A DNA stretch of 64,000 bases, taken from the sequence record MT446416.1; one strand, written 5' to 3'. Made by a program: the position numbers and the translations under genes. The stretch's first letter is position 1. Each line of letters begins with the position of its first letter. The notes beneath the pieces are model-generated. The model was not told where the DNA came from, made no database searches, and saw only the letters and a program-made list of their open reading frames with translations. Of this stretch, positions 6,948 through 56,283 are shown one piece after another. This DNA comes from Escherichia virus TH47.

Positions 6948-6948
6948 A

Positions 6949-32833: not shown

Positions 32834-33499
32834 AATTCATTTCCTTAATTAGTGGGGGAAGTTGTTTCCCCTCTCGATGAAAAACATTATACGCCAATTG
32901 AGATAGTTTGCAAGTACTTTTTAAAAATAGTTTTCAGTACTCAATACTTATATAATAGATACACTTATGCACCCGGTGGGCTAGTGAGCTATCTCTCAAT
33001 GAATATATAATAGCAAAATGGCTGACCGAAGTCAACCACTTTTTTCATTTATTTTTTAGCTTTTAGAATCGCCGCCTTTCGCGTCATGCCTTGCTTAATG
33101 TACTCCTTTACTTTCGCTTTACGTGCTTTCGCTTTATTTGCTTTCGTAAATGCCGAACAACTTTTATAGTTTAAACCTGTTGGATTCATTTAAATCACCA
33201 TAAAGAATAGATAGGTTACTAACAACGCCGCGATCAATGCACCGATCACCGCCGAACTGTAATAAGCAAATGATTTCATTTTTTAGCCTGGAAGTAATGT
33301 TTAATTTGTGCGGCGGTCAGTGCACAATTTCGCAGGAAGTTTTCTGTATAACTGCGGCGAGTACTGAAAGAAAATTGACCTTTGCCGTTGCCGATAGTAA
33401 CATCAAACCGAGCGTTGTATTGTTTCATTTTGATTCTCCTTGTATCAGGGAGGAACCATTTCCCCCCCCTCTATGTAAAACATTATACAGTACTGAAAA

Positions 33500-39790: not shown

Positions 39791-39883
39791 TTTTAATTCC
39801 TCTTAAGTGCAGCGGGAACCATTCCCGCTCTCGATGTAATACATTATACGCTATTTGATAGTACTGTCAAACTAATTTTTAAC

Positions 39884-40246
39884 TTATTCGTAAATTTTGC
39901 CACTGTCAGCCCATACCAGGAAACGAGGCATATTATCCCATGCATCTTGTTTTAAATTTAAACCGTGTAATACTTCTGTACTTTCCATTCCTGGTACTGG
40001 TTTACTATACACCGCGAACATTTCACCCATATACTGATAAGCCATCGTTAAATCACTGGCGATCATCTTATGGATCATCGCATCAAGCATCACGGTAGCG
40101 GCGTATTGTTCACGCTTAAGCGGCAACATTGCAATAAGTCCACGATAAGCTGAAATGTGAATTTTTACCGTTTCTGCCGGAAGATCTTTCATCTCGTCGC
40201 GGAAGTTAACCAGGTTAGCAATAATTTTATTGATTTGTGTCGCCAT
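39884..40246 (-). CDS. hypothetical protein (first gene downstream of the 2-kb control region)
   Basis: 120 aa; preceded by TTGCAT-N16-TATAAT and stem-loop. Confidence 0.55.
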   Translation of the reverse strand: MATQINKIIANLVNFRDEMKDLPAETVKIHISAYRGLIAMLPLKREQYAATVMLDAMIHKMIASDLTMAYQYMGEMFAVYSKPVPGMESTEVLHGLNLKQDAWDNMPRFLVWADSGKIYE

Positions 40247-40380
40247 CGTTTTTAATCTCTCTTAAAGTGCAGCGGGAACCATTCCCGCTCTCGATGTAAT
40301 ACATTATACGCCGTTAAACATAGTATGCAAGTACTTTCTACAAATACTTTTAAAATAGTTTTCTTTCTATATAGGGGAAC

Positions 40381-40436
40381 TATCTTTCAGTACTATCTTT
40401 CAGTACTATCATTCAGTACTATCATTCAGTACTGAA
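40381..40436. repeat. four tandem 12-13-bp repeats (TTCAGTACTATCWT)
   Basis: ctttcagtactat x2, cattcagtactat x2 read directly. Confidence 0.7.
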
Positions 40437-40596
40437 TCAATCCACTAAATCATCCCTATACCCCGTAAAACGGCCTCAGACGCATTCTAACGCATTAATA
40501 CACCTAAGCTATACATTTGCACCATTCCAATCATTCCAGGGCTTTACGGGCCGTTGAAACGCGTTAAATTATTTTCAATTATTTTGTTTTTAGGTA

Positions 40597-40624
40597 TTGA
40601 CTTGATCCTGAAAAAGCGTATAAT
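40597..40624 (+). promoter_or_regulatory. plus-strand sigma70-like promoter TTGACT-16-TATAAT
   Basis: -35 40597-40602, -10 40619-40624; no convincing ORF downstream. Confidence 0.5.
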
Positions 40625-40937
40625 TACTACATAAGCCGGACACAAGGCACTAACCCACAGGGTGCGGAATTACGCCCAAAATTCAAGATATAAAAAAAGG
40701 ATACACTCCCGCACCCTAGCAGGTCAACGCACTTTCTCAGTACTGAAATATAGTACCATAGTACTTGCCAGGATAGCAAGCAAATTAATTAAAACTTTTT
40801 TGCTTCCAGGGTATTGCTTTATTTTTTCAGTACTGTATAATAGTTTCATCAAGTCGAGAAAGACTCAAGCCCACCGGGTGCATAGTTACGCCCAAAATTC
40901 AGTACTGAAAAAATTTTTAAAATATCTGTCCAGGCCG

Positions 40938-40966
40938 TTGACATTGCCCCCAGTTTATAAGATAAT
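40938..40966 (+). promoter_or_regulatory. plus-strand sigma70-like promoter TTGACA-17-GATAAT
   Basis: -35 40938-40943, -10 40961-40966; followed by palindromic GGGGAAnnnTCCCC hairpins and iteron-like repeats. Confidence 0.5.
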
Positions 40967-41060
40967 GATTCCAGATTCAGAAAAATCTAACTCCAGATAC
41001 TGCGGGGAAACTATCCCCACGCGGTAGGGGAACTATTGGAAAAAACAAAATAAAATTTTG

Positions 41061-41175
41061 ATTTAGCCGTCTATACTTCCAGACGTGTAACCATCTAGCC
41101 GTTTAGCCGTCCAAACGTCTAGCCATCCAGCCATCCAGAAATCTAGCCGTTTAGCCGTCTAGATGGATAGCCATC
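41061..41175. repeat. iteron-like direct repeats (TAGCCGT / TAGCCAT / CCAGCCAT)
   Basis: at least 8 copies of 7-8-bp units within ~115 bp, locally GC-richer. Confidence 0.6.
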
Positions 41176-42109
41176 TTTACTTCCATACTTCTGGAGGTCT
41201 AGACATATCTACGTCCAAAATCCACCCAGGGTTACTACACCCAAAATCCGTCAGTACTATACCATAGATCTATCTTTTGAAAGGGAGTATTCAGTACTGC
41301 CATCATAGCCCTCACTATGTTACCCTAGGAGGATGAAGACTATCATGTAGTACTGAATACTGTTAGAGGGAATCCACCAGCTTGTGCTGGTGGCATAATG
41401 CTTTAGATTAAAATCAGTACTGACACCATTCTGTTAATATCAGTACTGTTATTACGATTTTCATATGAGGTTCAAAAAGATGTACCACCACAGGAGGAAC
41501 TATCTTTTCTGTACTGTCTCACGACAGGAGGTAGAGTAAATGAATTGTTCGCAGCAACTCATCTCTCTATGTAGAACATTATACAGTACTGAATCATAAT
41601 GTCAATAACTTTCTTTCACCATTCAGTACTGATATTCTTGAGAACTACCCGTCTACAAACATCATTATATCCCACAAATCATAAACGTCCCAACGTAAAT
41701 TTCAACTTTCGAAGATCCAACTTTTATTTCATAGGTACTCCAAAATTTTTAGGATCGAGATTTAGGATGGAGTACTAACCAACTTTTTGCTGGAGCCTCA
41801 AGGGGTAATTGAATTTTACCCCGAAGGGTAAAAGGGTAATTGAAATTAAGGTGAAAGTAATAATTCAGTACTAATCATTGCGTGATTACTTTTGATTACA
41901 TTTGATGTAATTTGCAAAATGGAAAAGGAGCTTGGAAACTAAAAAGTACGGTAGACTTCCTCTGCCTACTTAGTGGGATATCGACACCTTCAGTACTGAA
42001 TACTTTTGGGGCAGTACTGCTACGTTCTTGATTAAACGTGCACATTCCTGTACTCTATTACACTCTAGTACTCACTACTGATCAGTACTGATCACTACAG
42101 TGATTATAA

Positions 42110-42157
42110 ATGATTACTTAAATGTTTATATATGATTACTTATGATTACTTATGACA
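42110..42157. repeat. tandem ATGATTACTT repeats
   Basis: three to four copies read directly. Confidence 0.6.
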
Positions 42158-42312
42158 AAGAGAAGCCAAAAGCTTCTCTGTAGAGTTACGGGGTTTAGCC
42201 TGGAGAGAATCCTAGTGATCGCATTTGTCCAGGCTGAATTTTAACAATTCGCCTGTACATAAAGGTTGTTCACTAGGAGCTTCCCCAGTCTCTATGTGCT
42301 CTATATGTTGAA

Positions 42313-42522
42313 TTACTTCCTATATATAAGTATTAACATATAGTAGTACTGATTATGCTGTACATTCTCTTTAATATTATAAGGGTCTATAGCAATCTCG
42401 GTACATCTGTTAAATGCATATCTATTAAATGCCAGTACTATTAGATTGTTAACCCATGCTTGTTCGTTTTCTTTTAGTTTACTTATATAGTACTCTTTAT
42501 ACTCTTTATACTCTTTATGCAT
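42313..42522 (-). CDS. FamC small protein
   Basis: N-term MHKEYKEYKEYYISKL, C-term LILIYRK. Confidence 0.5.
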   Translation of the reverse strand: MHKEYKEYKEYYISKLKENEQAWVNNLIVLAFNRYAFNRCTEIAIDPYNIKENVQHNQYYYMLILIYRK

Positions 42523-42535
42523 AGTATTATCTCTA

Positions 42536-42718
42536 TTAATATGATAGTACTAGTGTTAGTACTGAGCACAATTGTTCTTTATAGTTCTTAGGGTATATAG
42601 AATCTTTTATGCACTCATTGAAGTGCCATAGGTATAATCTTGGGTCGCATTCTTTATATATTTTTACGGGGACGAATGTTAGTTTTCTTATATAGAAGTC
42701 TTTATGTTCTTTATTCAT
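42536..42718 (-). CDS. FamC small protein
   Basis: N-term MNKEHKDFYIRKL. Confidence 0.5.
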   Translation of the reverse strand: MNKEHKDFYIRKLTFVPVKIYKECDPRLYLWHFNECIKDSIYPKNYKEQLCSVLTLVLSY

Positions 42719-42920
42719 ATAGGAATAGTATACCTATGATGCCTGAGTACAGGTTAGTACTGTTATTATTGTCGTTTGCGTTTAAAGTCATTTGAATACA
42801 ATTATTGTAGCATAATCTGCCGAAATATGTATCAGTACTTAAAGGTGGTGTAGTTCTTAGAAACATTTGTTCTGATGTACTGAGGTGTTTGGAGTAGTAT
42901 TCTTTATGTTCTTTATTCAT
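42711..42920 (-). CDS. FamC small protein
   Basis: N-term MNKEHKEYYSKHL. Confidence 0.5.
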   Translation of the reverse strand: MNKEHKEYYSKHLSTSEQMFLRTTPPLSTDTYFGRLCYNNCIQMTLNANDNNNSTNLYSGIIGILFLYE

Positions 42921-42925
42921 ATTAG

Positions 42926-43111
42926 TTAGTGTCTGTATATAAGTAATAGTAAGAATACGTACTGCACCTGTTCATCTTTAGTATTGAGTACTGTACGTAT
43001 TGCGTCATGGAACAAGAATATAGTACTTGGGTCATTAGAATTTAAGGGGTTTACGGGGACGGCGTGTTTGTAGTTCCCTTTAACAAATTGTATATAGTAT
43101 TCTTTATACAT
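42926..43111 (-). CDS. FamC small protein
   Basis: N-term MYKEYYIQFV, C-term LLLLIYRH. Confidence 0.5.
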   Translation of the reverse strand: MYKEYYIQFVKGNYKHAVPVNPLNSNDPSTIFLFHDAIRTVLNTKDEQVQYVFLLLLIYRH

Positions 43112-43112
43112 A

Positions 43113-43292
43113 TTAGTACCTGAATATTAGGGCGAGAATGTAGTACATATAATTTTGGTTCACAGCACAGTCAGTATGGTCAATGAATTGTTGGGTCTTT
43201 TTCTTATCCTTGAAATCTATTGGGTTTAGTAGTATAAGCATTTGGGAGTTTATATCCAGATGGCTTACGTAGAATTCTTTATAGTTATTCAT
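43113..43292 (-). CDS. FamC small protein (59 aa)
   Basis: manual translation MNNYKEFYVSHLDINSQMLILLNPIDF...ILALIFRY; below track cutoff. Confidence 0.45.
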   Translation of the reverse strand: MNNYKEFYVSHLDINSQMLILLNPIDFKDKKKTQQFIDHTDCAVNQNYMYYILALIFRY

Positions 43293-43491
43293 AGAAGAAT
43301 ATTAGTCCTATTACACCTGAGTACATAATATTTTTGTTATTGTATTCTAATGCGTCTAGAGTACTACGTATACAATTATTAAAGCAATCTCTGGCGTGTT
43401 GTGTATCTAAACGTAAAGGTGATACACTCCTTAGAAACATTTGTTCTTCGTTGCTGAGGTATTTGGTGTAGAATTCTTTCTGTTCGTTCAT
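43285..43491 (-). CDS. FamC small protein
   Basis: N-term MNEQKEFYTKYL. Confidence 0.5.
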   Translation of the reverse strand: MNEQKEFYTKYLSNEEQMFLRSVSPLRLDTQHARDCFNNCIRSTLDALEYNNKNIMYSGVIGLIFFYE

Positions 43492-43501
43492 ATTGGCCTC
43501 T

Positions 43502-43690
43502 TTAGTACACGAAAGCTAGGTACAGTACATGATACAGTACTTGATTATAGTTGTAATAATTTATCACGCATTTAGTGCACGTAATGAAGTAGTCTTTTTC
43601 GTAGTTTATTTCTATACCGCGAGGTTCATCTTCTAACAGATTACCTTGAAGGTGCGGTGGTAAATCTTTTATGTAGTATTCTTTATACAT
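43502..43690 (-). CDS. FamC small protein
   Basis: start MYKEYYIKDL at 43688-43690. Confidence 0.5.
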   Translation of the reverse strand: MYKEYYIKDLPPHLQGNLLEDEPRGIEINYEKDYFITCTKCVINYYNYNQVLYHVLYLAFVY

Positions 43691-43691
43691 A

Positions 43692-43882
43692 TTAGTACCT
43701 GAATATAAGTAGGATAGTGTTATATAGTTGGTCATAACTACTACTATTTTCTATACTGCGTTCTATGCAGTTATTGAATCCCAGTACTGCCAAATCGTTA
43801 TCCAGGGGGGGACTTTATATCTGGCGTAGTATTCAAAAATGCTGGGGAGAAATTGTGTGTAGTATTCTTTGTGGTTGTTCAT
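43692..43882 (-). pseudogene. FamC member with frameshift at a C7/G7 homopolymer
   Basis: MNNHKEYYTQFLPSIFEYYARYKVPP... then second frame ...FNNCIERSIENSSSYDQLYNTILLIFRY; shift at run ~43803-43812. Confidence 0.4.
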
Positions 43883-43892
43883 ATTGTTCTCT

Positions 43893-44075
43893 TTAGTACT
43901 TATATATTAGGGCGAGGATGTAGTACAGTTTATATATTCTATCCTCGTACATTAGGGTGTACTTAGTACATTCTTGAAACATTGTTTTTGCGTCATCTTT
44001 TATGCCCAATGCAACGTTTGGTATATGGCTCTGTAGATGCATTGGAAGTTTCTCTATGTAGTATTCTTTATACAT
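43893..44075 (-). CDS. FamC small protein
   Basis: start MYKEYYIEKLPMHLQ at 44073-44075. Confidence 0.5.
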   Translation of the reverse strand: MYKEYYIEKLPMHLQSHIPNVALGIKDDAKTMFQECTKYTLMYEDRIYKLYYILALIYKY

Positions 44076-44739
44076 AGTTTGAAATATACGTAATGAGGTG
44101 ATGAATTTTCTTATCAGTACTGATAAGTTCCTGTACATGTTTTGTTAGTTTGTACGCGTTTTTATAGAGTCCTGGATTATCGATTACAGTACTGTACATG
44201 AATTCTTCTTCTGGTGTTAATTCTTTGTTTTGTAGTTCTTTTAGGAATTGCAGTACTGTAATAGTTTCTTCTGTACGTTGCTGTTGGAAGAAATGCATGT
44301 TATCGTGTACTTTTTCTGAACCAATGCAGTACATATCGCCGATTTGGAATTGTGCTGTACGGATATCATGGGTGCTATTACAATTCCCGAAGAAGTATAC
44401 ATTCCCGAAAGATAGAATTATAGTGCACGGGATATTATCCAGGTGCATATAGATATAGATAGATGCGTCCTCTAGTGCTTTTGTGCTGGTATTAGTACTC
44501 AATACTTTTAAATCAGTATTATAGATATTCATATAATGAACAGCTATATTATTTTTCTTCATGTACAATTCAAGGTTCTTTGATACGTTAACTCCATTTG
44601 TACTGGTTTTTTTACTTTTCTTTAGGTTCTTTAGTACATTAGGGTGATAAGTATATGCATTAGTAATAGATTCAGCCTGGATGGATTGCAAGTACTTAAA
44701 GTGCTGTAGGTATCGTTTACTTTGTGGATTGAGTTTCAT
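44068..44739 (-). CDS. hypothetical protein, paralog of 53657-54307, with FamA-like C-terminal segment
   Basis: 223 aa; shared KKNNIAVHYMN/CNST segments; C-terminal EEEFMYSTVIDNPG. Confidence 0.5.
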   Translation of the reverse strand: MKLNPQSKRYLQHFKYLQSIQAESITNAYTYHPNVLKNLKKSKKTSTNGVNVSKNLELYMKKNNIAVHYMNIYNTDLKVLSTNTSTKALEDASIYIYMHLDNIPCTIILSFGNVYFFGNCNSTHDIRTAQFQIGDMYCIGSEKVHDNMHFFQQQRTEETITVLQFLKELQNKELTPEEEFMYSTVIDNPGLYKNAYKLTKHVQELISTDKKIHHLITYISNYV

Positions 44740-44750
44740 ATTGGTTTCCT

Positions 44751-44930
44751 TTATATAGATGCGAGTGCGAGGATTTCCCTGTAGGGATTATCTTGTGTTA
44801 GTGCGTGATGAATGCAGCTATTGAGATTAATATTTTTAGTACTGTTAGTTGCTAGGTTGTAGTACTTCACGAAGGTGTCGTACATGAAACGGTCTTTAAT
44901 GCTTATGTGTTCTATATAGTATTCTTGCAT
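44751..44930 (-). CDS. FamC small protein
   Basis: start MQEYYIEHISIKDRF at 44928-44930. Confidence 0.45.
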   Translation of the reverse strand: MQEYYIEHISIKDRFMYDTFVKYYNLATNSTKNINLNSCIHHALTQDNPYREILALASI

Positions 44931-44994
44931 ATTATTCCTTAGATTTAGATTAGTTTTAGTACTTCTCTGTACGTGTACTTTTCGTTTTGTGCTT

Positions 44995-45117
44995 CTACTG
45001 TACATGATAGAAAGTATCGTTTTTATCTCTTTTGTTCCCGACTGTGTAGTACCTTTGGAATTGATTATAAATGTATCTATCTTTGTGCTGAAGTTTATAG
45101 ATATAGAATTCTTGCAT
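44995..45117 (-). pseudogene. truncated FamC remnant (40 codons)
   Basis: MQEFYIYKLQHKDRYIYNQFQRYYTVGNKRDKNDTFYHVQ then stop. Confidence 0.3.
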
Positions 45118-45125
45118 AGAGTACC

Positions 45126-45311
45126 TTAGATAGAGATTAGTTTTAGTACTTCAATATATGTGCGGTACTCTGCTTTAATTAAATTTGTACACACTGTAAG
45201 GGAACTTCTTTGTATAAGTTTATTGCCGCTTTTATACGCATTTCTCCACACATAGAGATGAGATCTTTCTGGCATAGATAGTTTATTTGTATAGTACTCA
45301 AATGTATTCAT
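45126..45311 (-). CDS. FamC small protein
   Basis: start MNTFEYYTNKLSMPE at 45309-45311. Confidence 0.45.
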   Translation of the reverse strand: MNTFEYYTNKLSMPERSHLYVWRNAYKSGNKLIQRSSLTVCTNLIKAEYRTYIEVLKLISI

Positions 45312-45321
45312 AGTATTCTCT

Positions 45322-45507
45322 TTACATATCAATAAGTTTCAGTACTGCTCTGTACGTGTACTTAGTTGTTAGTGTTTCTTTTATAGCAGTACAGAAGTAA
45401 TGTTGTTTGTCTCTAGTACTGACGCGTTTGTAGTACCATACATGGGAGTTGTGGCTGTACTTGTCCCTGTCGGATAGTTTTTGGTAATAGTAGCTTTTAT
45501 GATTCAT
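45322..45507 (-). CDS. FamC small protein
   Basis: N-term MNHKSYYYQKL. Confidence 0.45.
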   Translation of the reverse strand: MNHKSYYYQKLSDRDKYSHNSHVWYYKRVSTRDKQHYFCTAIKETLTTKYTYRAVLKLIDM

Positions 45508-45728
45508 TGTAATGTAATTAGCCTTATTATGTTAAAGTACTCGGTCCCTGGTACACCTTGTAGAATATTATCAACTACATTTATTTGGTGCAGGATGAGT
45601 ACATTCGGTGCGGATCTTTTAAGGTTTTTTTAAAGTACTGAATTCTTGTTTAAGGATGTTCTGCACATCTTTAGGGAGAATATCTAAGTAGTACTGATGA
45701 ATGTTCATAGTTTTCATATAGTACTCTT

Positions 45729-45914
45729 TTAGAACTTAAAGATGAGGTTCATGATAGATAAGTACTTAGTTTCAGGAAATTGATGTTCTATTGCATAACG
45801 TGTCGCCAGTCTGAAGTCAAATTTATAAAAGGGAGTATTCATATCCAGAGGTTCATTGGGGAATGAATCTCGGTATTGCTTGTGCAGCTTACTACAGTAG
45901 AATTCTTTATACAT
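45729..45914 (-). CDS. FamC small protein
   Basis: N-term MYKEFYCSKL. Confidence 0.45.
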   Translation of the reverse strand: MYKEFYCSKLHKQYRDSFPNEPLDMNTPFYKFDFRLATRYAIEHQFPETKYLSIMNLIFKF

Positions 45915-45915
45915 A

Positions 45916-46128
45916 TTAGTGCTCGATTAATAGGGTAAGGATGTAATAGTATTGCATACTTTCTACCCCTTGTAAAGCATTTCTTATTTTATTATTCCTG
46001 TACGAGTTCAAGAGTTTAGGACAATGTTTGAGGTTTATATAATTATTTTGTGTATACAGTAGGCTTTCTCGTAGACCTTTTGTTGGTAGTGCATCGATGT
46101 AGTACTGTTCAATGTTCATAGTGTTCAT
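45916..46128 (-). CDS. FamC-like small protein
   Basis: N-term MNTMNIEQYYIDAL. Confidence 0.45.
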   Translation of the reverse strand: MNTMNIEQYYIDALPTKGLRESLLYTQNNYINLKHCPKLLNSYRNNKIRNALQGVESMQYYYILTLLIEH

Positions 46129-46352
46129 AGAGCTACCAGTACTAAGATTTTTGATAATTGTTTATTGCTATCCCCGCAGATGTTGCTGTGTAAAATACTC
46201 GCGGTGAGGGTATCAAGTGCACTGTTCAGCATAAGGTTACATCCAGTACTGTTATGTGTTTTTAGCTCTATCAGCCACGAACTATCCGCGAGAAACTTCG
46301 CGTACTCTAGTTCAGTTAGAGTATTGATGTAGTACTTAAGTGTAGTTGTCAT
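46125..46352 (-). CDS. FamC-like small protein (first gene of the array)
   Basis: N-term MTTTLKYYINTL. Confidence 0.45.
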   Translation of the reverse strand: MTTTLKYYINTLTELEYAKFLADSSWLIELKTHNSTGCNLMLNSALDTLTASILHSNICGDSNKQLSKILVLVAL

Positions 46353-46455
46353 GTACAGTTCTCCTTATATTCCTTCTATAGTACACCAGTACTGAAAGGA
46401 TGTCAAGGGTTTTGTTTATGGGGTAAATATGATATAATGAATAAAGGAGGGAAAT

Positions 46456-47577
46456 ATGTTACCTTTTGTTAGAATGTTTGATTATGGAAATGAAGCACCT
46501 GATCCTAGTTCGGGATTTCGAATAATAAGTACAGGAGACGCATTACTATTAATTACTGAGAGTGGTGATTTGTGGGTGCGTGGTTATAACCGTTATGGCA
46601 AGTTAGGTATAGGTAATAACACCACTACCTATGTACTTGATTGGACGAAGGTTAGAAGTGATGTGAAGTTTGCGTGTGGTAGTGGATTGGTAACAGTTAT
46701 CTTTACTAAGGATAATCGTATATTGTACTGTGGTGACAAATGGTTTGAAACGGGTGGTGTTGGTAGTGCACAGATTTTCACATGGACAGATGTTACGCAC
46801 CAATTTGGGGTAGTAGATTTGAGTACAGTAAGGGATATGAAAATGTCTTATTACACGATTGGATTATTGACTACTAATAATCAATTATACGCTAAGGGAT
46901 TTGATAATAACCTATCATTTGGTGGGGTTACTAATAAGGCGACTGCTGTGTTTATTGCGAATAATGTACAAGAGTTGTATACGAGTTTAGTTAGTACTAT
47001 CTACGTTGATACAAGTGGTATATTACATCGTTGTGGCATGAGTGATAACGGTTCGTTGGGTAATAATGGTAGTTTAACTTCGTATCTAAGTTATTCACAG
47101 CCTGGTATGACGATTAAGGACATTGGAATGATGACTACGAACACTGGGTTATTATATACTGATTCTAGTGCACGCACGAGATATTTTATTGCTGGACAGA
47201 ACTTGAATAAACAGATGGGTAATGCGGCGTCTGCGAGTGCCATTACGAGTACTTACACAGAGCTTTCTGGTAGTGTTGATAAGTTTTCTTCTTTATGGGA
47301 GAATGATGGGATATTGATGACATTTGCTGTGGGTAAGAACACTAATCAGTTATTTTATGCTGGGACGAATACTTTTCATGCGAGTGGTGGTGAATCTTCA
47401 TATGCGGATACATATGAGTTAGTCCCGATGGTGTTTAATGACATACAGGAAGTGTTATGTGCACAGCGTTTATCGGTGGTACATGATTCTACGAAGTGGT
47501 ATTACTGTGGTGATGCTAATTCAATGTATGGTTTACCGGACGTAAGTACTTTTACTGAGTTACCGTTGCCCTTTTAA
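46456..47577 (+). CDS. RCC1-like repeat (beta-propeller) protein, FamD copy 1
   Basis: N-term MLPFVRMFDYGN; repeats GYNRYGKLGIGN etc.; AGGAGGG RBS; TATAAT 46434-46439. Confidence 0.8.
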   Translation: MLPFVRMFDYGNEAPDPSSGFRIISTGDALLLITESGDLWVRGYNRYGKLGIGNNTTTYVLDWTKVRSDVKFACGSGLVTVIFTKDNRILYCGDKWFETGGVGSAQIFTWTDVTHQFGVVDLSTVRDMKMSYYTIGLLTTNNQLYAKGFDNNLSFGGVTNKATAVFIANNVQELYTSLVSTIYVDTSGILHRCGMSDNGSLGNNGSLTSYLSYSQPGMTIKDIGMMTTNTGLLYTDSSARTRYFIAGQNLNKQMGNAASASAITSTYTELSGSVDKFSSLWENDGILMTFAVGKNTNQLFYAGTNTFHASGGESSYADTYELVPMVFNDIQEVLCAQRLSVVHDSTKWYYCGDANSMYGLPDVSTFTELPLPF

Positions 47578-47585
47578 TAATAGGT

Positions 47586-47615
47586 CAGTACTGAAATATG
47601 TACTGGTATTTTTTG
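47586..47615 (+). terminator. intrinsic terminator hairpin + T-run
   Basis: CAGTAC-N8-GTACTG followed by TTTTTTG. Confidence 0.55.
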
Positions 47616-47654
47616 TAAATACTATATAATTATTTTAATTTTGGAGATTTAATC

Positions 47655-48824
47655 ATGTTACCTTTTGTTAGAATGTTTGATTATGGGAATGTAGCACCTG
47701 CACCACCGAAATTTAAAAAAATACTCACCAATAACTACAACGTTGCAGTTTTAACAAGCAGTGGGGATTTATATGTACGTGGGAATAATCAAAACGGTCA
47801 ATTGGGTTTAGGTCACAAAGAAAAAGTTACTACATGGACGTTTAGTACTTCTGGTGTTCAAGATTTTTGGTTTGGTAGTTCAACACTAGTGGTTAAAAAA
47901 ACCGATGATGAAATATGGTACAGTGGACAGTCAACCTCTGTTGGTATGCCAGGGGCATCTGTATCGGGGTGGACTTCTGCCATGCCGACATTCAATACAT
48001 TAACATTACCAATATTAGATATGGCAGTTAGTAATCAGACTACAAGTGTATTACTATCAGACCGAACAATATGGAGTACTGGGGTAGGAAGTAATGGTCA
48101 ATTGGGTAATGGAACTGCGACGAACAACATTTCAGGTAAATTCGTCAAAAGTACTGTTTCGACAGAAGAAGAACAATTACCAGTTAAATTGTTTGCCAGT
48201 AATTTAATGCATGGATATGTTACCGAGAACGGCTGGTTATACTACACTGGGCAACCCAATGCAGTTAGCACTAATGGCAGTGCGGTATATAGTGTTTATA
48301 CTAGTGCTCCTATTAGTCTAAGGAATACCATTAATATCAAGTACTATACAAATAATGGAACTTCGATGGCGATGGCTATTGGTACAGATCCAAATGGTAA
48401 GACCGTACTTGCTAATGGTGGCCCTAGGATATTTGGTGCACAGGCTGACGGAGTAAATGGTCAACTAAGTAATATTAGGCCATTTGCTGTTCAAACCGAA
48501 TCATTGATGCCTCCTGGGGATTTGGTAAGTATTGCTCATAATACTTCATATTATAACCAAGTTATTGCTACAACAGATGGTATATATTGTTGCGGCTACA
48601 ACCAATCTACACACGCTGGTATGTTAGGCATTGGTACATCTACTAACGCATTAGTATATACCAAAGCAATCGTACCTGATGGTTTTGATTATAGTAAATC
48701 GCAAATGGCAGGTGAGTATAACCGTACTTATATAACTGATGGTAATTTTGTATATAGTACAGGGACAGATGTCACATATGGTGGCATTAATAGCTTAGAA
48801 TTTGTAATAGATTCACCATTATAA
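47655..48824 (+). CDS. RCC1-like repeat protein, FamD copy 2
   Basis: N-term MLPFVRMFDYGN; GNNQNGQLGLGH, GSNGQLGNG. Confidence 0.8.
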   Translation: MLPFVRMFDYGNVAPAPPKFKKILTNNYNVAVLTSSGDLYVRGNNQNGQLGLGHKEKVTTWTFSTSGVQDFWFGSSTLVVKKTDDEIWYSGQSTSVGMPGASVSGWTSAMPTFNTLTLPILDMAVSNQTTSVLLSDRTIWSTGVGSNGQLGNGTATNNISGKFVKSTVSTEEEQLPVKLFASNLMHGYVTENGWLYYTGQPNAVSTNGSAVYSVYTSAPISLRNTINIKYYTNNGTSMAMAIGTDPNGKTVLANGGPRIFGAQADGVNGQLSNIRPFAVQTESLMPPGDLVSIAHNTSYYNQVIATTDGIYCCGYNQSTHAGMLGIGTSTNALVYTKAIVPDGFDYSKSQMAGEYNRTYITDGNFVYSTGTDVTYGGINSLEFVIDSPL

Positions 48825-48830
48825 AAAGAA

Positions 48831-48861
48831 AAGCCAGTACTTGATACTGGCTTTTCTTTTT
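48831..48861 (+). terminator. intrinsic terminator (AGCCAGTAC-TTGA-TACTGGCT + T-run)
   Basis: hairpin read directly; same element after copies 3 and 6. Confidence 0.6.
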
Positions 48862-48868
48862 GTATTAA

Positions 48869-48884
48869 ATATAGTATAATGAAT
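48869..48884 (+). promoter_or_regulatory. -10-only promoter-like motif TATAATGAATA (T4-late-like?)
   Basis: TATAAT 48875-48880, ~17 nt upstream of ATG, RBS AAGGAGGG; no good -35. Confidence 0.4.
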
Positions 48885-48897
48885 AAAGGAGGGAATT

Positions 48898-50007
48898 ATG
48901 TTACCTTTTGTTAGAATGTTTGATTACGGGAATATTGCACCTGAAGCTCCAAAGATAAAGAAAGTACTGTGCGGTCGTGATAATTTGTACGTCCTCTATG
49001 GCGATGGCTCACTTTATGGTTGTGGGGATAATGCGTATTTTCAGTTAAACGTTAAAAATGCAGCAACAAGAAATACTTGGATATTAATTTCAGAAGGTGT
49101 TACTGATGTATGGGCTGGGGCGTACAATATTCTTTATCTCAAGGGTGAAGAATTCATAATGCATGGAGTTACCACACAATTAGGCACAGGAGATACTATG
49201 ATTCCGTTGGGTGGTTTGAATGTTACTTCTTCATTTCCACATATATCTAATATTAAAATGATATCAATTGGTGCAGATACAATGCACTACGTTGATGCTA
49301 GTGGTTCGATTGTTTATGGTAGAGGCATGAATGGTAACTATTCACTCGGTGGTGGGTATTCCACGGCTCAGAGTACTTTTGTTTCAGTTATTAATACCGG
49401 AGCTAATACAGTCCTTGATATATTGGGTACACAGAATAACACATTAATATTAACATCAAATGGTGAACTTCTCGGTTGTGGGAGTAGTGGGTATGGTTCA
49501 CTTGGCGTAAGTCCAGGACAGTATACTACACTAGTAAGCAGGTTAACCAGTGTTAAACTGTTTGGTGGTAACAGTACTGGTACTCTTGCTTATTCAGCCA
49601 GCAATATATACAACGCAGGTTGGCAGTATGTTGGTCAACTTGGTAACGGTATTACAACGAACACACTACTATATCCATTTGCATTAAACTCCACTACTAT
49701 TGATAGTAAGATACATAAAATATCAAAATCAAGTACAACTTCACGTGTTAATATGTACGCAACAACCGAAGGAAAGATATATAGTACTGGTGAATTTGGT
49801 AGAAATGGTTCTGGTGGTAGTTTGAGTAGATTCACCAATACACTAACTTTAGATAATTACAACCCAGAAAAATCAGCATTATACACATGTGCAAATTTTA
49901 GTATAGTATTTGATGGTAATAATCAAATTTATGCTTGTGGTTCTTTTTTGTATGTGCCAGGTCCTATTACCACGAACTCATGGTCTGCAATTACAATGCC
50001 GAAATGA
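48898..50007 (+). CDS. RCC1-like repeat protein, FamD copy 3
   Basis: N-term MLPFVRMFDYGN. Confidence 0.8.
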   Translation: MLPFVRMFDYGNIAPEAPKIKKVLCGRDNLYVLYGDGSLYGCGDNAYFQLNVKNAATRNTWILISEGVTDVWAGAYNILYLKGEEFIMHGVTTQLGTGDTMIPLGGLNVTSSFPHISNIKMISIGADTMHYVDASGSIVYGRGMNGNYSLGGGYSTAQSTFVSVINTGANTVLDILGTQNNTLILTSNGELLGCGSSGYGSLGVSPGQYTTLVSRLTSVKLFGGNSTGTLAYSASNIYNAGWQYVGQLGNGITTNTLLYPFALNSTTIDSKIHKISKSSTTSRVNMYATTEGKIYSTGEFGRNGSGGSLSRFTNTLTLDNYNPEKSALYTCANFSIVFDGNNQIYACGSFLYVPGPITTNSWSAITMPK

Positions 50008-50021
50008 TACTATAAAACTAT

Positions 50022-50050
50022 GCCAGTACTTGATACTGGCTTTTCTTTTT
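50022..50050 (+). terminator. intrinsic terminator (GCCAGTAC-TTGA-TACTGGC + T-run)
   Basis: read directly. Confidence 0.6.
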
Positions 50051-50085
50051 GATTAAATATAGTATAAAGAATAAAGGAGGGAATT

Positions 50086-51243
50086 ATGTTACCTTTTGCT
50101 AGAATGGTTAAGTACGGAAATAGAGTTCCAGTACCTGTTGGGATTAAGAAGATAAACTCTGTCGGTACTAGTCAGATGATATTGACGAATACAGGCGACG
50201 TGTATGCATATGGTCAAAACACCAACTGGAGATTTGGTAGTGGTAGTTCTAGTGAGATTAGTGGGGGAGTTCCACAGATGGTAATGCAGGGTGTATCGGA
50301 TATGATATGTCATCCCAGATGTACATTATTAATAATGTCTGATGGACGTTATCTTGCTGCTGGGAACTCTACAGTACTGGGAGGTAGTTCAGGATTGAAT
50401 TATGTAGATGTTAGTTCTAAGTTCGCTACATTAGGAACTATCAAGAAAATTGATTTTACCCGAAGGAACAGTACTTCGTATACAGTATATGCATTAAACA
50501 CTGATGGTGATTTATATGGTATTGGATATGGAAACCGTGGTCAATTGGGGTTAGGTAAAAATAATAGTTTAGGTGCATTTACGAAGATAAACACCAATTG
50601 CAGGAATTTTGTAAGTTGTTCTTATGAGACGATAGTGGCTCTTAAGAATGATAATACTGCGTGGTTCTGTGGAAATTATTCGTTTATTAGTGGTAATACT
50701 GATGTTACTACATTTACTAACCTTGGTGATACTGCAATACTTAATATCTACGGTAATGGTTTAAATGGTGAGTTGTTATACACAAAAAGTGATGGTTTAT
50801 ATTTCCGTGGTTTAGCGTCGAACCGATATGGTTATTCATTCAGTTTAGAACAGCGTGCAATTAATAGCAAGATTACATTGCCGTTTGCTTATGATGTAAG
50901 TACGTTTAAGATTCTCACAGATGAACAGACAACAACCGTCAGTGTGTGGATTTCCAATTCAGACGTTCATTATGGGGTTGGTGCAAATAGCAGTAACACT
51001 AACAGAATGGGATTCACCAACCCAACTATGCCAGGTGCTGGTTCAAACTTTACATTACAGGATTTCAGTTCAGTGCAGGGCACTATTGAGACTGTTGTTA
51101 GTGCAAGTTATTATACAACTCTTATAAACTCTAATGGGAAAGTATTTGGCAGTGGGCCTTTTGATGATGATTCTTTAACTTATTTTCCTGGGAATAATCC
51201 AAAACTGATGAACTACACAGAAATTAAATTGAATATAAATTAG
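50086..51243 (+). CDS. RCC1-like repeat protein, FamD copy 4
   Basis: N-term MLPFARMVKYGN; GYGNRGQLGLGK. Confidence 0.8.
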   Translation: MLPFARMVKYGNRVPVPVGIKKINSVGTSQMILTNTGDVYAYGQNTNWRFGSGSSSEISGGVPQMVMQGVSDMICHPRCTLLIMSDGRYLAAGNSTVLGGSSGLNYVDVSSKFATLGTIKKIDFTRRNSTSYTVYALNTDGDLYGIGYGNRGQLGLGKNNSLGAFTKINTNCRNFVSCSYETIVALKNDNTAWFCGNYSFISGNTDVTTFTNLGDTAILNIYGNGLNGELLYTKSDGLYFRGLASNRYGYSFSLEQRAINSKITLPFAYDVSTFKILTDEQTTTVSVWISNSDVHYGVGANSSNTNRMGFTNPTMPGAGSNFTLQDFSSVQGTIETVVSASYYTTLINSNGKVFGSGPFDDDSLTYFPGNNPKLMNYTEIKLNIN

Positions 51244-51255
51244 GAGAGAATAATT

Positions 51256-52416
51256 ATGTTACCTTTTGCTAGAATGGTTAAGTACGGAAACATTGCACCA
51301 TCCCCTGCTGCCATTAAAAAATTAGTTACCGGATATAACTGGGTTATGGTATTGGGTAGTAATGGTAAATTATATACCCGTGGTGCCAATTCAAGTGGTC
51401 AGTTGGGTTTAGGAGACAATACAGCCAGAACATCATGGACATTAACTGCATCGGATGTCATTGATGTATGGTGTGGTCAGTATGCCACAATGATTCACAA
51501 ATCAGATGGTACATATCAATACACAGGGAAACAATACAATGTGTGTATGGGTACATCATCTGTTAATGCATGGACTTCTATGCAAACTCTTATTAATCAA
51601 GTTAATTCTCAAGGAACAATTACAGAAATATCACTAGGAAATAACTTCATTTCAATACTTATGAGTAATGGGACCATTTGGTGTGGTGGTTATAACACAG
51701 GAGGACAGCTTGGCAATGCTTCTTATTCTAACAGTTTTACTACATTAGTAAAATCAATTATACCAAGTGGTGCGGTTCCGAAAAGGATTATTGCAGGTAT
51801 AAACATGTGTTCATTTATTGCCGAAAGTGGTAGATTATATTACACAGGTGAAGTTAATGGTGATACTAACAGTACTTCAACCGTGAGTTTTTATAATGTA
51901 TTCACATTGTCAGATAGATTACCAGCAACTGTTAGTACTATAGCATTTATAAGTACTGTTAATGATATGGTGCAAGGTATTGCAAGAAACAAAAGCACGT
52001 CAGTTGTTTCAGTGTACACAGGTGGTGATCAATTATATGGACAGGCTGCTACTGGTACTGATACTACAACAAAAATATTGACAACTGTTGTGGCAAATCA
52101 ACCACAAGGAAATATATTAGATATAGGATATGGGTACGGATATTACTCTAACTTTGTTATTACTGACACAGGTGTATACGTTGCTGGTAATAACTCAGCG
52201 ACTTCATACTATGGACAATTAAGTACAGGTTCAACTACTAACGTATTAACTTACACTAAGTCTATTACTCCTGATTTAAATTTCAATGATGTTAAAATCC
52301 AAAGTTGCTATGGTAAAACATATATGACAGATGGAAACAAAATATATTCAAGTGGTACTAACCTAGTATCTGGTGGTACTGCTAGTACTATATTTGTTGA
52401 AGATTCACCAATTTAA
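51256..52416 (+). CDS. RCC1-like repeat protein, FamD copy 5
   Basis: N-term MLPFARMVKYGN; GANSSGQLGLGD, GYNTGGQLGNAS; no terminator between copies 4 and 5. Confidence 0.8.
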   Translation: MLPFARMVKYGNIAPSPAAIKKLVTGYNWVMVLGSNGKLYTRGANSSGQLGLGDNTARTSWTLTASDVIDVWCGQYATMIHKSDGTYQYTGKQYNVCMGTSSVNAWTSMQTLINQVNSQGTITEISLGNNFISILMSNGTIWCGGYNTGGQLGNASYSNSFTTLVKSIIPSGAVPKRIIAGINMCSFIAESGRLYYTGEVNGDTNSTSTVSFYNVFTLSDRLPATVSTIAFISTVNDMVQGIARNKSTSVVSVYTGGDQLYGQAATGTDTTTKILTTVVANQPQGNILDIGYGYGYYSNFVITDTGVYVAGNNSATSYYGQLSTGSTTNVLTYTKSITPDLNFNDVKIQSCYGKTYMTDGNKIYSSGTNLVSGGTASTIFVEDSPI

Positions 52417-52422
52417 AATAAT

Positions 52423-52450
52423 GCCAGTACTCTGTACTGGTATTCTTATT
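52423..52450 (+). terminator. intrinsic terminator hairpin
   Basis: GCCAGTAC-TCT-GTACTGG followed by T-rich tract. Confidence 0.5.
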
Positions 52451-52486
52451 TGTATTAAATATAGTATAATGAATAAAGGAGGAATT

Positions 52487-53623
52487 ATGTTACCTTTTGC
52501 AAGAATGGTTAAGTACGGGAATATAAAAGTAAAGAGTACTATCCAAAAAGTTATCCTTGGTGGTGGTGGTCAATGTGTGGTAACATTACTCAGTGATGGT
52601 AGAGTGTATGGACGTGGTTACAACACTACACATGGGTTAGGTACTGGTACAACAACATTCGTAAGTGATTGGGTATTAATGGGCGATAATATTGTTGATA
52701 TCCATTCAAATGGTGTTCCTGGCACATTCCTTATCACCAAAGAAAATAGAATTTTGTATTCTGGTTGGGCGACACCAATCAATGGTACAACTGCACATTA
52801 TACACGTTTCACTGATTTAACATCAACTGTATTTGCTGCGGTGGATGTTAGTAATATTAAAACAATTACTGGAAATATTAATGCTACAATGGTCCTGTTG
52901 AATGATGGTTCTCTTTATGGTAGTGGTGCAAATACAGGTGTTATTGGTAATGGTAGAAATGTTGCATTATCAACACAAACATATGTAACTAATGATGTGA
53001 GAGAAGTAAAAACATATGGATCCATGACTACTATAACAAAAAATAACAATCAAATACTGGGTAGTGGTCTTTTATACCACGGCGTGAACGGTACAAATTC
53101 AATAATAAACACGTCTTCATATACATTACTGTACACATTACCGAGTTCTGATTGTTTTCAATTTGCATTTGATGAATATACATTTGGATATGTTGACCCT
53201 AGCACTAATACTTCTTATATAAGAGGTATACCAATAAATGGTTCATTGGGTAATGGTGTTACTAATAATACAGCAGTTACAACATGGGTTACTAAAGTTT
53301 GGAATACACCAATTGATAGTTCTATACCTAATAAATCACATACACTTAACCATGTCTCCTTGTTCAATGATGGAAACTTATGGACAACTGGTGCATCTAA
53401 TGTCGGTTATTCCAATGGTACAAATAGCACAACAGCTAATACTTGGACCAGTTCATCTAATTTACCATTCAACACCAATAACATCACAGACTATGCGTTG
53501 GGTAGTAATATTACTGTGGTGGTAATCGACTACAGGTCTATGTACATACTAGCTAACAACTTAATTGCTGGAACTACATCAACCACTTACAAATTTGAGC
53601 CATATAATTCTCCACCAGTTTAA
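52487..53623 (+). CDS. RCC1-like repeat protein, FamD copy 6
   Basis: start MLPFARMVKYGN at 52487 after AAGGAGG; track N-extension from 52373 rejected. Confidence 0.75.
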   Translation: MLPFARMVKYGNIKVKSTIQKVILGGGGQCVVTLLSDGRVYGRGYNTTHGLGTGTTTFVSDWVLMGDNIVDIHSNGVPGTFLITKENRILYSGWATPINGTTAHYTRFTDLTSTVFAAVDVSNIKTITGNINATMVLLNDGSLYGSGANTGVIGNGRNVALSTQTYVTNDVREVKTYGSMTTITKNNNQILGSGLLYHGVNGTNSIINTSSYTLLYTLPSSDCFQFAFDEYTFGYVDPSTNTSYIRGIPINGSLGNGVTNNTAVTTWVTKVWNTPIDSSIPNKSHTLNHVSLFNDGNLWTTGASNVGYSNGTNSTTANTWTSSSNLPFNTNNITDYALGSNITVVVIDYRSMYILANNLIAGTTSTTYKFEPYNSPPV

Positions 53624-53629
53624 TATAAT

Positions 53630-53659
53630 GCCAGTACTTGAGTACTGGCTTTTCTTTTA
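53630..53659. terminator. bidirectional hairpin terminator between convergent genes
   Basis: GCCAGTACTTGAGTACTGGC + TTTTCTTTT. Confidence 0.55.
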
Positions 53660-54307
53660 CATATTATATAATGTGAATGCAGTCACTTTACCAGTTGTTG
53701 TTAGTTCATTATAAAGATACTCCAAGATTCTCGCACACTCTAAGTATATCTCGATATCATCATGAATAAGTGAGTACTGGAATAGCTGTTCTTCAGATAA
53801 TTTGTATTGACTCCCTCTTAATGAATTGAGAATATCTTTCACATCATCAAGTACTGGGTAAAGTACGAAATCTTCATCATATTTTGAAGCAATAAATTCA
53901 AATCCACCACCATCAGTACTAGATATACCAATCAGTACTTTATCAATCAAGTTAATGTTTATATAACGGTTGTGATTTGGGTGAATTGAAATCTCAAACA
54001 TACGAGTACTGTTACAATCAACATCAATATACAAATATACATCATTGAATTTATAAGTTAAGCAACCATACTCAATGTAATCAGAGCAAATAATTGATGA
54101 ATTTTTTCTCGTCTCTGCGTAATGCATATTGATATTCTTTTTACGCATAAGTAATTCGAACTTTGCACTAAACTTACCACCAGTAAGATAATTAGTATTA
54201 GGACGTTTGTAACTGGCAACTGGCCTATGGGATGATGAAAAGTATCTTTTTGTGAATCGTTTCTGTTTAGTGAAATATTCTTGATAGAACTTATTTCTTT
54301 TATTCAT
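53657..54307 (-). CDS. hypothetical protein, paralog of 44068-44739, with FamA C-terminal module
   Basis: motif SEEQLFQYSLIHDDIEIY; start MNKRNKFYQEYF at 54305-54307 after GAGG. Confidence 0.5.
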   Translation of the reverse strand: MNKRNKFYQEYFTKQKRFTKRYFSSSHRPVASYKRPNTNYLTGGKFSAKFELLMRKKNINMHYAETRKNSSIICSDYIEYGCLTYKFNDVYLYIDVDCNSTRMFEISIHPNHNRYININLIDKVLIGISSTDGGGFEFIASKYDEDFVLYPVLDDVKDILNSLRGSQYKLSEEQLFQYSLIHDDIEIYLECARILEYLYNELTTTGKVTAFTLYNM

Positions 54308-54385
54308 GAGTGCCTCAATTAAATTGCTGTAAAATTGTACGTTATAAAATGAGTAAATAAAGTATAACACAAGGAGATTTTTATT

Positions 54386-55510
54386 ATGTTACCTTTCGTA
54401 TTGTTATTTGATTATGGGAACGAAAAACAAGAAAGTTCTTATGATGTTAGTGTATATGGAAACAATAACTACATTTTAAATAAACAAACTGGAAACCTTT
54501 TTGCATCTGGTGCTGCGGCATTTATGGGTGATAACACCGTTAAGTATTATATTACCCAAATCGAATCAAATGTTCATAGCTGTGAGATAGGCTTCCTATC
54601 ATCATGGATAATTAAGAAGGACAAAACTGTTTTCATTTTAGGAAACAAAAGTTCAATTGGTCTAACCGATTCGACCACATCATGGTTTGAAATTACAAAT
54701 TTATTTTCTGCTGTTCCTGAAATATGGGACAACCTATTTGAATGTAAAGTTCAATTGGGATATAACTGCATACGTGTTATGACACCACTAGGTTCAATCT
54801 ATGCGATTGGCACAAACACTTATGGTGCATTGGGTACTGGTACTACATCCTCATCAACTTCGTTCGTTAAAAGTGGTGCTGTGGATGCTGTACGCATGGA
54901 ATCAACTGAACGTTCAGTTTTCTATCAAAACAGTTCTGGAAAATGGTTTGGATGTGGTGATAACACATATGGTATACTAGGTCTAGGAACTACCGCCAGT
55001 CGTGTAAACTCATACACCGCACCAGTATGGACTAATGCAGAAGCTGTTAGCTTCTCTAACCGTGGTATCATATACAGCCTCAATGGTACTCTATACTCAT
55101 GTGGTGACAAAGTTAATGGTCAGCTAGGGGATGGATATACACAAAGCATAGACGCTGCCAGGAGCACACCATACACCATAGGAACCGCATTCCAAATTGG
55201 TAAGGCAATAACATCAGCTACACAAGCATCAGCCAACGTATTCATTGGTAAAGATAATAAGTTCTATGGTACTGGTAGTATTGCTGCTGGTATAAATGGT
55301 AGTGCTAGTGCTACATTAAGTAAAGTTACTGCGTTATCAGCATCACTACCACCTGACATTACATACAATGATATTATAACATTTAATACAGGGACCGTAA
55401 CTTTTATTCAAGCAAAAGGACAACTATATTATGTTGGTAGAAGAACTTACATAGATAATAGTTCAGACGTTACCACACAGTTCAGTTTAATTGGTGGCTT
55501 AGATAATTAA
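54386..55510 (+). CDS. RCC1-like repeat protein, FamD copy 7 (most divergent)
   Basis: N-term MLPFVLLFDYGN; GTNTYGALGTGT, GDNTYGILGLGT, GDKVNGQLGDGY. Confidence 0.8.
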   Translation: MLPFVLLFDYGNEKQESSYDVSVYGNNNYILNKQTGNLFASGAAAFMGDNTVKYYITQIESNVHSCEIGFLSSWIIKKDKTVFILGNKSSIGLTDSTTSWFEITNLFSAVPEIWDNLFECKVQLGYNCIRVMTPLGSIYAIGTNTYGALGTGTTSSSTSFVKSGAVDAVRMESTERSVFYQNSSGKWFGCGDNTYGILGLGTTASRVNSYTAPVWTNAEAVSFSNRGIIYSLNGTLYSCGDKVNGQLGDGYTQSIDAARSTPYTIGTAFQIGKAITSATQASANVFIGKDNKFYGTGSIAAGINGSASATLSKVTALSASLPPDITYNDIITFNTGTVTFIQAKGQLYYVGRRTYIDNSSDVTTQFSLIGGLDN

Positions 55511-55515
55511 AATTA

Positions 55516-55547
55516 ATCCAGTACTATAATAGTACTGGATTTTTTAT
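55516..55547. terminator. bidirectional hairpin terminator
   Basis: ATCCAGTACTATAATAGTACTGGAT + TTTTTT between convergent genes. Confidence 0.6.
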
Positions 55548-55918: not shown

Positions 55919-55919
55919 T

Positions 55920-56282: not shown

Positions 56283-56283
56283 G

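Follow-up and report, generated by a model that had tools for sequence, protein, structure and literature searches.

Lineage-specific tandem expansions of small genes have been described in jumbo phages: more than 30 similar genes were noted in 121Q and phage G and interpreted as duplication-driven enlargement of the genome (Hua et al. 2017, PMC5646251), and Bacillus phage G carries a zinc-ribbon expansion of about 35 copies (PMC7824862). Here we describe an array of this general kind in Escherichia virus TH47 (sequence record MT446416.1), from which a stretch of 64,000 nucleotides, hereafter the window, was analysed. The array occupies positions 42313-46352 on the minus strand and comprises 17 related small open reading frames (ORFs) of a family that we call FamC. 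The papers on 121Q and phage G differ in that they describe neither this family nor its copy-number variation, promoter or broken copies. The copies in PMC5646251 are moreover said to be 'very similar', whereas those of FamC are not (median 25% identity), and whether its 121Q array is the FamC array cannot be told from its text.

Arrays of diverged small paralogs are also found in bacteria. The EsaG/TsaI immunity genes of type VII secretion form non-identical tandem strings that recombine between paralogs (PMC9484751), and they share with FamC a strain-variable number and a recombination between neighbours that produces deletions and hybrids. They differ in being bacterial immunity proteins with known toxin partners and bear no sequence or fold relation to FamC. 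In gene accordions, young and near-identical copies expand and contract within passages; amplification of poxvirus K3L, which Elde and colleagues are said to have reported in 2012, goes by this name. There too recombination between tandem copies varies the number of a host-interaction gene, a likeness that depends on the host role we infer for FamC, whereas no pair of FamC copies is more than 63% identical. The early host-takeover and anti-defence proteins of T-even phages and T7 are small, mostly single-copy and mutually unrelated. FamC proteins resemble them in being small and without homologs, in having a sigma70-type promoter, in belonging to a small-gene region and in being absent from a virion list; they differ in their multiplicity and mutual relatedness.

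We find that the array is made up of 17 old, strongly diverged paralogs of a soluble, tyrosine-rich, all-helical protein of about 60 residues. We are confident of its anatomy and history, namely that it is an old, genus-restricted tandem family in one operon, whose intact copies are kept by selection and which undergoes occasional deletions of single units. No published description of the family was found in the literature; its proteins are already present in GenBank and PHROGs as hypothetical proteins, and it is the family that is delimited here.

The FamC array and its seventeen paralogs

An earlier annotation of the window (the original prediction) had placed about 17 tandem small genes in this interval, and 17 ORFs were indeed found there, head to tail on the minus strand and 59-75 amino acids (aa) long if intact. 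It made no mention of a gene of 223 aa, gene X (44068-44739, minus strand), which interrupts the array and is not a family member. The 18 genes leave little room between them, their spacers measuring -8 to +13 nt. Three start/stop overlaps of 8 nt, a feature also predicted, were located at 42711-42718, 43285-43292 and 44068-44075, two of them reading ATGAATAA and one ATGTATAA; several of the other junctions are TAATATG and several consist of a stop codon plus a Shine-Dalgarno motif.

The operon's first gene, copy K (46125-46352; 75 aa), is the most divergent member, is present in 12 of 12 relatives and matches a profile of 65 family sequences at 2e-13 in a six-frame scan. Copy H (45916-46128; 70 aa) overlaps the stop of K by 4 nt with its ATGA start, and is followed by copies D (45729-45914; 61 aa), S (45508-45717; full length with a +1 frameshift), G (45322-45507; 61 aa), Q (45126-45311; 61 aa from an internal ATG), A (44931-45117; full length with a -1 frameshift) and J (44751-44930; 59 aa). 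Beyond gene X lie copy P' (43893-44075; 60 aa), the start of which overlaps the stop of gene X by 8 nt, and copies M (43692-43882; full length with a +2 homopolymer insertion), B (43502-43690; 62 aa), C (43285-43491; 68 aa), F (43113-43292; 59 aa; overlapping C by 8 nt), E (42926-43111; 61 aa) and O (42711-42920; 69 aa). The last two are copy N (42536-42718; 60 aa; overlapping O by 8 nt), whose protein is 100% identical to its ortholog in phage vB_Ec-M-J, and the array's final gene, copy I (42313-42522; 69 aa), a recombinant of paralogs V and I.

That these ORFs are one family is evident from several comparisons. All-against-all phmmer joined them in a single network (best E 4e-25, O versus C; most links 1e-4 to 1e-9). 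In a leave-one-out test each copy was scored against a profile hidden Markov model (HMM) of the other copies, with 200 shuffles of itself and 19 small proteins of the neighbouring region as controls; every copy beat all of these, scoring 9.2-55.8 bits against shuffle maxima of 7-14. The weakest were K (9.4 versus 7.3 bits) and the 32-aa fragment of S (9.2 versus 7.9 bits). Copies H, D, G and C are linked by phmmer, the leave-one-out HMM and the profile scan, Q, J and B by the latter two, F by phmmer and the leave-one-out HMM, and E and O by the leave-one-out HMM together with a PHROG match; S, M and A were recognised by alignment with seven orthologs, with 11 orthologs and, pairwise, with vB_Ec-M-J, respectively. 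In a six-frame HMM scan of the 64-kb window, family matches were confined to 42316-46364 on the minus strand. The phmmer network and the leave-one-out HMM thus identify a true paralogous family, and the copies did not turn out to be unrelated on alignment.

Copies I, O, E and P' match PHROG 11711, a group of unassigned function seeded on PBECO4 p282, over the whole profile (1.5e-17, 3.1e-10, 5.9e-10 and 3.9e-20), and the annotators of SHEFM2K assigned its array proteins to the same PHROG. Among the upstream copies, J, G, H and K were searched and gave no PHROG match at E <= 0.1; PHROG 11711 covers only the subfamily downstream of gene X, and these upstream copies belong to the family because the profile and leave-one-out tests link them to it. 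The predicted motif, M-x-K-E-Y-Y with L-I-[YF]-R, likewise holds for the downstream subfamily only; across all copies just one tyrosine is invariant.

FamC is narrowly distributed, forming 55 clusters in 5.8 billion proteins. A search of 1.84 billion representatives with the 65-sequence profile, conducted without a word index, returned 32 proteins, 30 of which are relatives of about 60 residues; the other two are long tetratricopeptide-repeat (TPR) proteins matched via a short compositional motif, and no significant sequence or structure match to a TPR-like helical repeat or solenoid hairpin was found. Searching 50,697 phage records with tblastn gave 33 matches, all of them Escherichia or Salmonella Asteriusvirus-like (121Q/PBECO4) jumbo phages, and divergent metagenomic homologs lie in the same type of array with the same embedded gene of about 221-223 aa. 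As judged by these matches, the family is restricted to the Asteriusvirus (121Q/PBECO4) group in the databases searched. Comparison of its members with Pfam, NCBIfam and PDB sequences gave nothing above noise, and no homology to characterised anti-defence inhibitors (Acr, Ocr-like) emerged from the Pfam, NCBIfam, PDB-sequence and fold searches, a dedicated anti-defence search not being among them.

The AlphaFold model of copy P' is all-helical, with four helices (predicted local distance difference test, pLDDT, 90.5; predicted template modelling score 0.76), and a fold search with it gave no informative structural neighbour. Family proteins contain 10.9% tyrosine and have isoelectric points (pI) of 5.1-9.6. 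They have no transmembrane segment (maximum 19-residue Kyte-Doolittle mean 0.91), and a hydrophobic C-terminal stretch of about 12 residues is modelled as a packed helix; a membrane protein of the holin or superinfection-exclusion type was ruled out, there being no hydrophobic segment of transmembrane length. Non-coding repeats or spurious ORFs were likewise rejected, given 209 intact copies among relatives, a ratio of nonsynonymous to synonymous substitution rates (dN/dS) below 1, Shine-Dalgarno motifs at the junctions and a confident fold. No family members are among the listed virion proteins of phAPEC6. Variability within orthogroups peaks in profile columns ~13-34, the central third; hardly any change is seen in the KE[YF]Y N-terminus, at a few core positions or in the C-terminal helix. 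Such a pattern is compatible with relaxed constraint and equally with diversifying pressure on a single surface, and the two are not separable here.

Gene X matches PHROG 29152 at 1.9e-119 and occupies the same internal position of the array in all relatives and in the divergent metagenomic arrays. Its homologs form 22 clusters, all from this phage group; none was detected outside it, and Pfam, NCBIfam and PDB-sequence searches gave nothing above noise. Its dN/dS of 0.41-0.48 is similar to that of the small genes. The AlphaFold model of gene X, a mixed alpha/beta prediction, is unreliable (pLDDT 45).

Copy number and divergence among related phages

The 4-kb region matches 33 phage records, all from Escherichia and Salmonella 121Q/PBECO4 jumbo phages, of which vB_Ec-M-J is the best at 91% nucleotide identity, and the window itself thus comes from an Asteriusvirus (121Q/PBECO4-like) phage. 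Complete E. coli genomes gave no match. In all relatives the array lies between a divergent array of RCC1-like genes and a stretch of about 2 kb without annotated genes, and its members are all annotated 'hypothetical protein'. Copies were extracted from 12 relatives and grouped into orthogroups by single-linkage clustering at 62% identity. The variation in copy number that the original prediction proposed to look for among related phages is present: each of the 12 has 15-23 copies, gene order is conserved, and whole orthogroups are present or absent, so that every sampled genome keeps 15-23 types from a shared pool of at least 23. Disrupted copies are rare. The 11 relatives of good quality hold 209 intact copies and one remnant, and the only relative full of fragmented copies is CMSTMSU, which GenBank marks UNVERIFIED.

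No recent duplicates were found in the 12 genomes, the closest paralog pair within a genome being 55-63% identical and the median pair 25%. Since no pair exceeds 63% in any genome, all duplications predate the divergence of the sampled phages, and copy-number variation therefore consists of differential loss or exchange of old paralog types. Of the predicted birth-and-death turnover, the differences in copy number are borne out; ongoing birth is contradicted by the divergence of every pair, and death looks rare, with one remnant to 209 intact copies and no decayed family members in or beside the array, including the ORF-poor 2 kb downstream, in a six-frame profile scan.

Compared with vB_Ec-M-J, the window has five units fewer. 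Unit T of that phage, which comes next after copy A, is precisely absent. Copy I resembles paralog V over its 5' ~70 nt and paralog I over the remainder: in a sliding-window comparison, identity over nt 31-70 is 0.87-0.90 with V and 0.60-0.73 with I, and from nt 81 onward it is 0.97-1.00 with I. The joint between the V-like 5' part and the I-like 3' part marks an unequal-crossover deletion of one unit. A half-gene test flagged copy I as the sole case among 226 copies, and widespread mosaicism or cassette shuffling was rejected, only this one of 226 being clearly chimeric. Copy P' was also considered as a hybrid and set aside, for its residues 2-46 are 91-93% identical to copies in UB, Turkey3 and ELP-22, which are more likely its orthologs there. 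Tandem duplication thus expanded the family before the sequenced members of the genus diverged. Genomes have since come to differ chiefly because unequal homologous recombination between adjacent copies removes entire units. The V::I joint and the precise unit deletion are the traces of this process in the window, with copies otherwise normally staying intact.

The array changes more rapidly than the genes around it. Its pairwise Nei-Gojobori dN/dS, taken across the orthogroups, is 0.42 as a whole and below 1 for most of them; between the window and vB_Ec-M-J it is 0.47 for the array, 0.12 for 26 small genes nearby and 0.16 when all 43 genes compared are included, placing the array at 3-4 times its neighbours. 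Four of 14 copies reach 1.0-1.6 against vB_Ec-M-J, values resting on very few substitutions. With an overall dN/dS below 1, the label of arms-race locus given to this region earlier goes beyond what these rates establish.

The three frameshifted copies

Alignment with intact orthologs reduces each of the disrupted copies, M, S and A, to a full-length gene with a single change of homopolymer length. In copy M the split at a seven-base C/G run that had been noted in 43692-43882 is borne out: the run is C7 (G7 on the plus strand) at ~43805-43811, where 11 orthologs have C5, CCCTC or CCCTA, and the 3' half encodes protein 100% identical to that of the orthologs. Copy S has A7 (T7 on the plus strand) at ~45625-45631, and intact orthologs keep the frame with A6 followed by CC, or A7 followed by C. 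Copy A has A5 in place of the A6 of vB_Ec-M-J at ~45025, plus a stop two codons early. The intervals 44995-45117 (~40 codons) and ~45620-45718 (~32 codons), taken earlier for truncated remnants, are instead the 5' halves of copies A and S (the latter at 45619-45717), the 3' halves of which survive and differ very little from intact orthologs. Second halves of M and A were detected in the shifted frame by the six-frame scan, and apart from the early stop of A no further decay was seen in any of the three.

Whether these shifts are real has different answers for different copies. The A7 run of S, with an identical 32-aa product, also occurs in an independent NCBI assembly, GCA_005400705.1 (a contig of 345,910 bp), in which the array region is ~93% identical and differently organised and the M and A copies are intact. 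Because it is shared with that assembly, the shift in S is genuine and inherited. Look-ups of the exact truncated products of M and A found no other assembly on record that encodes either, and these two shifts could be very recent or could be sequencing errors. Two unrelated small genes on the minus strand, at 26721-26933 and 33079-33189, also show poly-A +1 shifts when compared with vB_Ec-M-J (A6 to A7 in the first, A5 to A6 in the second), and close to the start of the former a GAA codon has in addition mutated to the stop codon TAA. Set against the rest of the window's genes, FamC has no more than a marginal excess of frameshifts (p = 0.03 when counted by nucleotide or by homopolymer run; 0.12 by gene). 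Sequencing error is possible for two of the three shifts because other small genes show such poly-A shifts and the FamC excess is no more than marginal.

There is not far from an even chance that the C7 shift in M and the A5 shift in A, perhaps together with every other homopolymer shift of the window, are errors of sequencing or assembly and that the true genome has 17 intact copies. All five frame-breaking indels fall in homopolymers (C5 to C7, two cases of A6 to A7, one of A6 to A5 and one of A5 to A6), and two of the five are in the unrelated genes; sequence downstream of the shifts is undamaged save for the early stop in A; the truncated products of M and A are encoded by no other assembly on record; and the one other assembly with many broken copies is the UNVERIFIED CMSTMSU. 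Against this explanation stand the second assembly, by which at least the shift in S is real, and the 43 other genes with vB_Ec-M-J orthologs, which are intact over 16.6 kb and 61 homopolymer runs of at least five. The nonsense substitution in one of the other shifted genes also suggests that dispensable genes are truly decaying in this isolate.

We regard it as unlikely, by comparison, that the array is an active birth-and-death locus of arms-race type, in which copies arise and decay and the three disrupted ones are true pseudogenes from relaxed or shifting selection. A copy number of 15-23, a dN/dS raised 3-4-fold over neighbouring genes and reaching 1.0-1.6 in four copies, the inheritance of the S frameshift and the marginal enrichment per nucleotide or run would all suit such a locus. 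Against it, the 12 genomes hold no recent duplicates, the 11 good-quality relatives have one remnant beside 209 intact copies, and decayed remnants are absent in and beside the array. Each disrupted copy, moreover, carries one homopolymer indel and a 3' half that matches intact orthologs (the early stop of A excepted), and per gene the enrichment is not significant.

Promoter, possible functions and surroundings

A promoter scan located a sigma70-type promoter for the array at 46378-46406 on the minus strand (TTGACA, a 17-nt spacer and TACTAT). The spacer holds the palindrome CAGTACTG (46387-46394), an A-rich tract lies upstream, and an AGGAG Shine-Dalgarno motif precedes the first ATG by 8 nt. 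In 12 of 12 related phages this motif and both the -35 and -10 boxes are identical. Similar promoters precede many small genes of the adjoining region, and in the related phage CBB RpoD-like promoters were proposed to mark an early host-takeover region (PMC5259590). Given the conserved sigma70-type promoter and the precedent of CBB, early expression of the array is a reasonable inference, and the region forms a single polycistronic operon that is probably early.

On balance we favour the explanation that FamC is an old, diverged tandem family, encoded in one probably early operon, shaped by differential loss and perhaps serving to bind host proteins. Its proteins would be made early from a promoter used by host RNA polymerase, each paralog would act in takeover or counter-defence as a small protein that binds one from the host, and the differences between paralogs would lie chiefly in a hypervariable central segment carried by a conserved helical scaffold. 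Taken by itself, the functional part, that these are early small binders of host proteins, is put forward tentatively. Several points weigh against the explanation as a whole. The raised dN/dS may reflect relaxed constraint on small redundant proteins, being below 1 overall, and the few copies near or above 1 owe this to very few substitutions; orthogroups from single linkage at 62% may merge or split some types; with one clear chimera in 226 copies, recombination between paralogs is occasional; and early timing is read from the promoter consensus, no Asteriusvirus transcriptome having been found in the literature.

A more far-reaching version, which we consider doubtful, is that the array represents a genus-wide library of at least 23 types of tyrosine-rich mini-binder on one novel helical scaffold of about 60 residues, expressed immediately after infection, with each type neutralising a different host factor or defence variant and with phage-specific subsets, assembled by unit-wise recombination, helping to set which strains are permissive. 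If true, such a binder library would be a phage counterpart of the poxvirus host-range gene families. Should the proteins be host-directed binders, they would form a compact, naturally diversified set of inhibitors and a candidate determinant of host range in the jumbo coliphages being isolated for therapy, and their conserved scaffold and hypervariable centre would ease target screening. As it stands the significance is mainly descriptive: an orphan family is delimited, its variation is traced to loss of old copies, and its 'pseudogenes' are resolved into single homopolymer shifts.

The proteins might instead serve the phage itself, for instance as chaperones of assembly or adaptors for the RCC1-like virion proteins, or as small proteins associated with DNA, which we think improbable. 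FamC adjoins the RCC1-like array, which is also copy-variable (8 here, 15 in vB_Ec-M-J), and two RCC1-like proteins are virion-associated in phAPEC6. Such a role is disfavoured because Erwinia jumbo phages have RCC1-like genes but no FamC; furthermore, the FamC promoter is of sigma70 type, like those of small genes in the adjacent region, and not a late-type motif, FamC members do not figure in the phAPEC6 virion list, and their range of pI does not fit a uniform DNA binder. Least credible, and very improbable, is that the homopolymers are programmed sites of ribosomal frameshifting, transcriptional slippage or phase variation that regulate or diversify the copies: C7 and A7 runs are slippery in principle and the A7 allele occurs in two genomes, but orthologs are single in-frame ORFs without the two-frame arrangement, for which reason programmed frameshifting is not supported, the M site mostly lacks a run (CCCTC, CCCTA), the S and A runs are of in-frame length, and run length is not polymorphic across 11 good assemblies.

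The RCC1-like (beta-propeller) array lies at 46456-55510 on the plus strand, divergent from FamC, with about eight copies. Its members in vB_Ec-M-J, 15 in number, are annotated regulator of chromosome condensation, phAPEC6 was reported to have 11, two of them virion-associated, and the family extends to Erwinia jumbo phages. Counts of RCC1-like copies per genome by tblastn, made for co-variation with FamC, were uninformative, the paralogs being too divergent.

On its other side FamC is bordered by about 2 kb (40250-42310) with no convincing ORF, which is ~90% conserved in relatives and unannotated there as well. On its minus strand is a perfect TTGACA-16-TATAAT promoter (41605 to 41578), and on its plus strand are two that are near-perfect (40597 and 40938). 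It also contains a 13-nt tandem repeat in four copies (40366-40430), repeats of 8-nt period (41068-41180) and repeats of TGATTACTTA (41883-41915 and 42101-42155). No transfer RNAs or Rfam RNAs were found in the window at gathering thresholds, with chance-level matches only in 40200-42400. The 8-nt palindrome CAGTACTG occurs 65 times in the 64 kb where 0.89 would be expected (at most 4 in any of 100 dinucleotide-preserving shuffles), often as TTCAGTACTGAA and both inside and between ORFs; it is densest at 40427-42090, and the ORF-poor region on the downstream side of the array contains a cluster of 12.

An exact direct repeat of 47 nt, at 39805-39851 and 40265-40311, combines a hairpin (GCGGGAACCATTCCCGC) with a TATAAT-type promoter on the minus strand. 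Like hairpin-promoter modules recur between the small genes of 23-40 kb, and each of these genes therefore seems to own a terminator and a promoter. Finally, runs of adjacent, similarly sized ORFs on the minus strand at 3900-7000 (~147 aa) and 55547-57986 (~104-123 aa) resemble further tandem paralog families and are probably the other small-protein families to which the original prediction referred.

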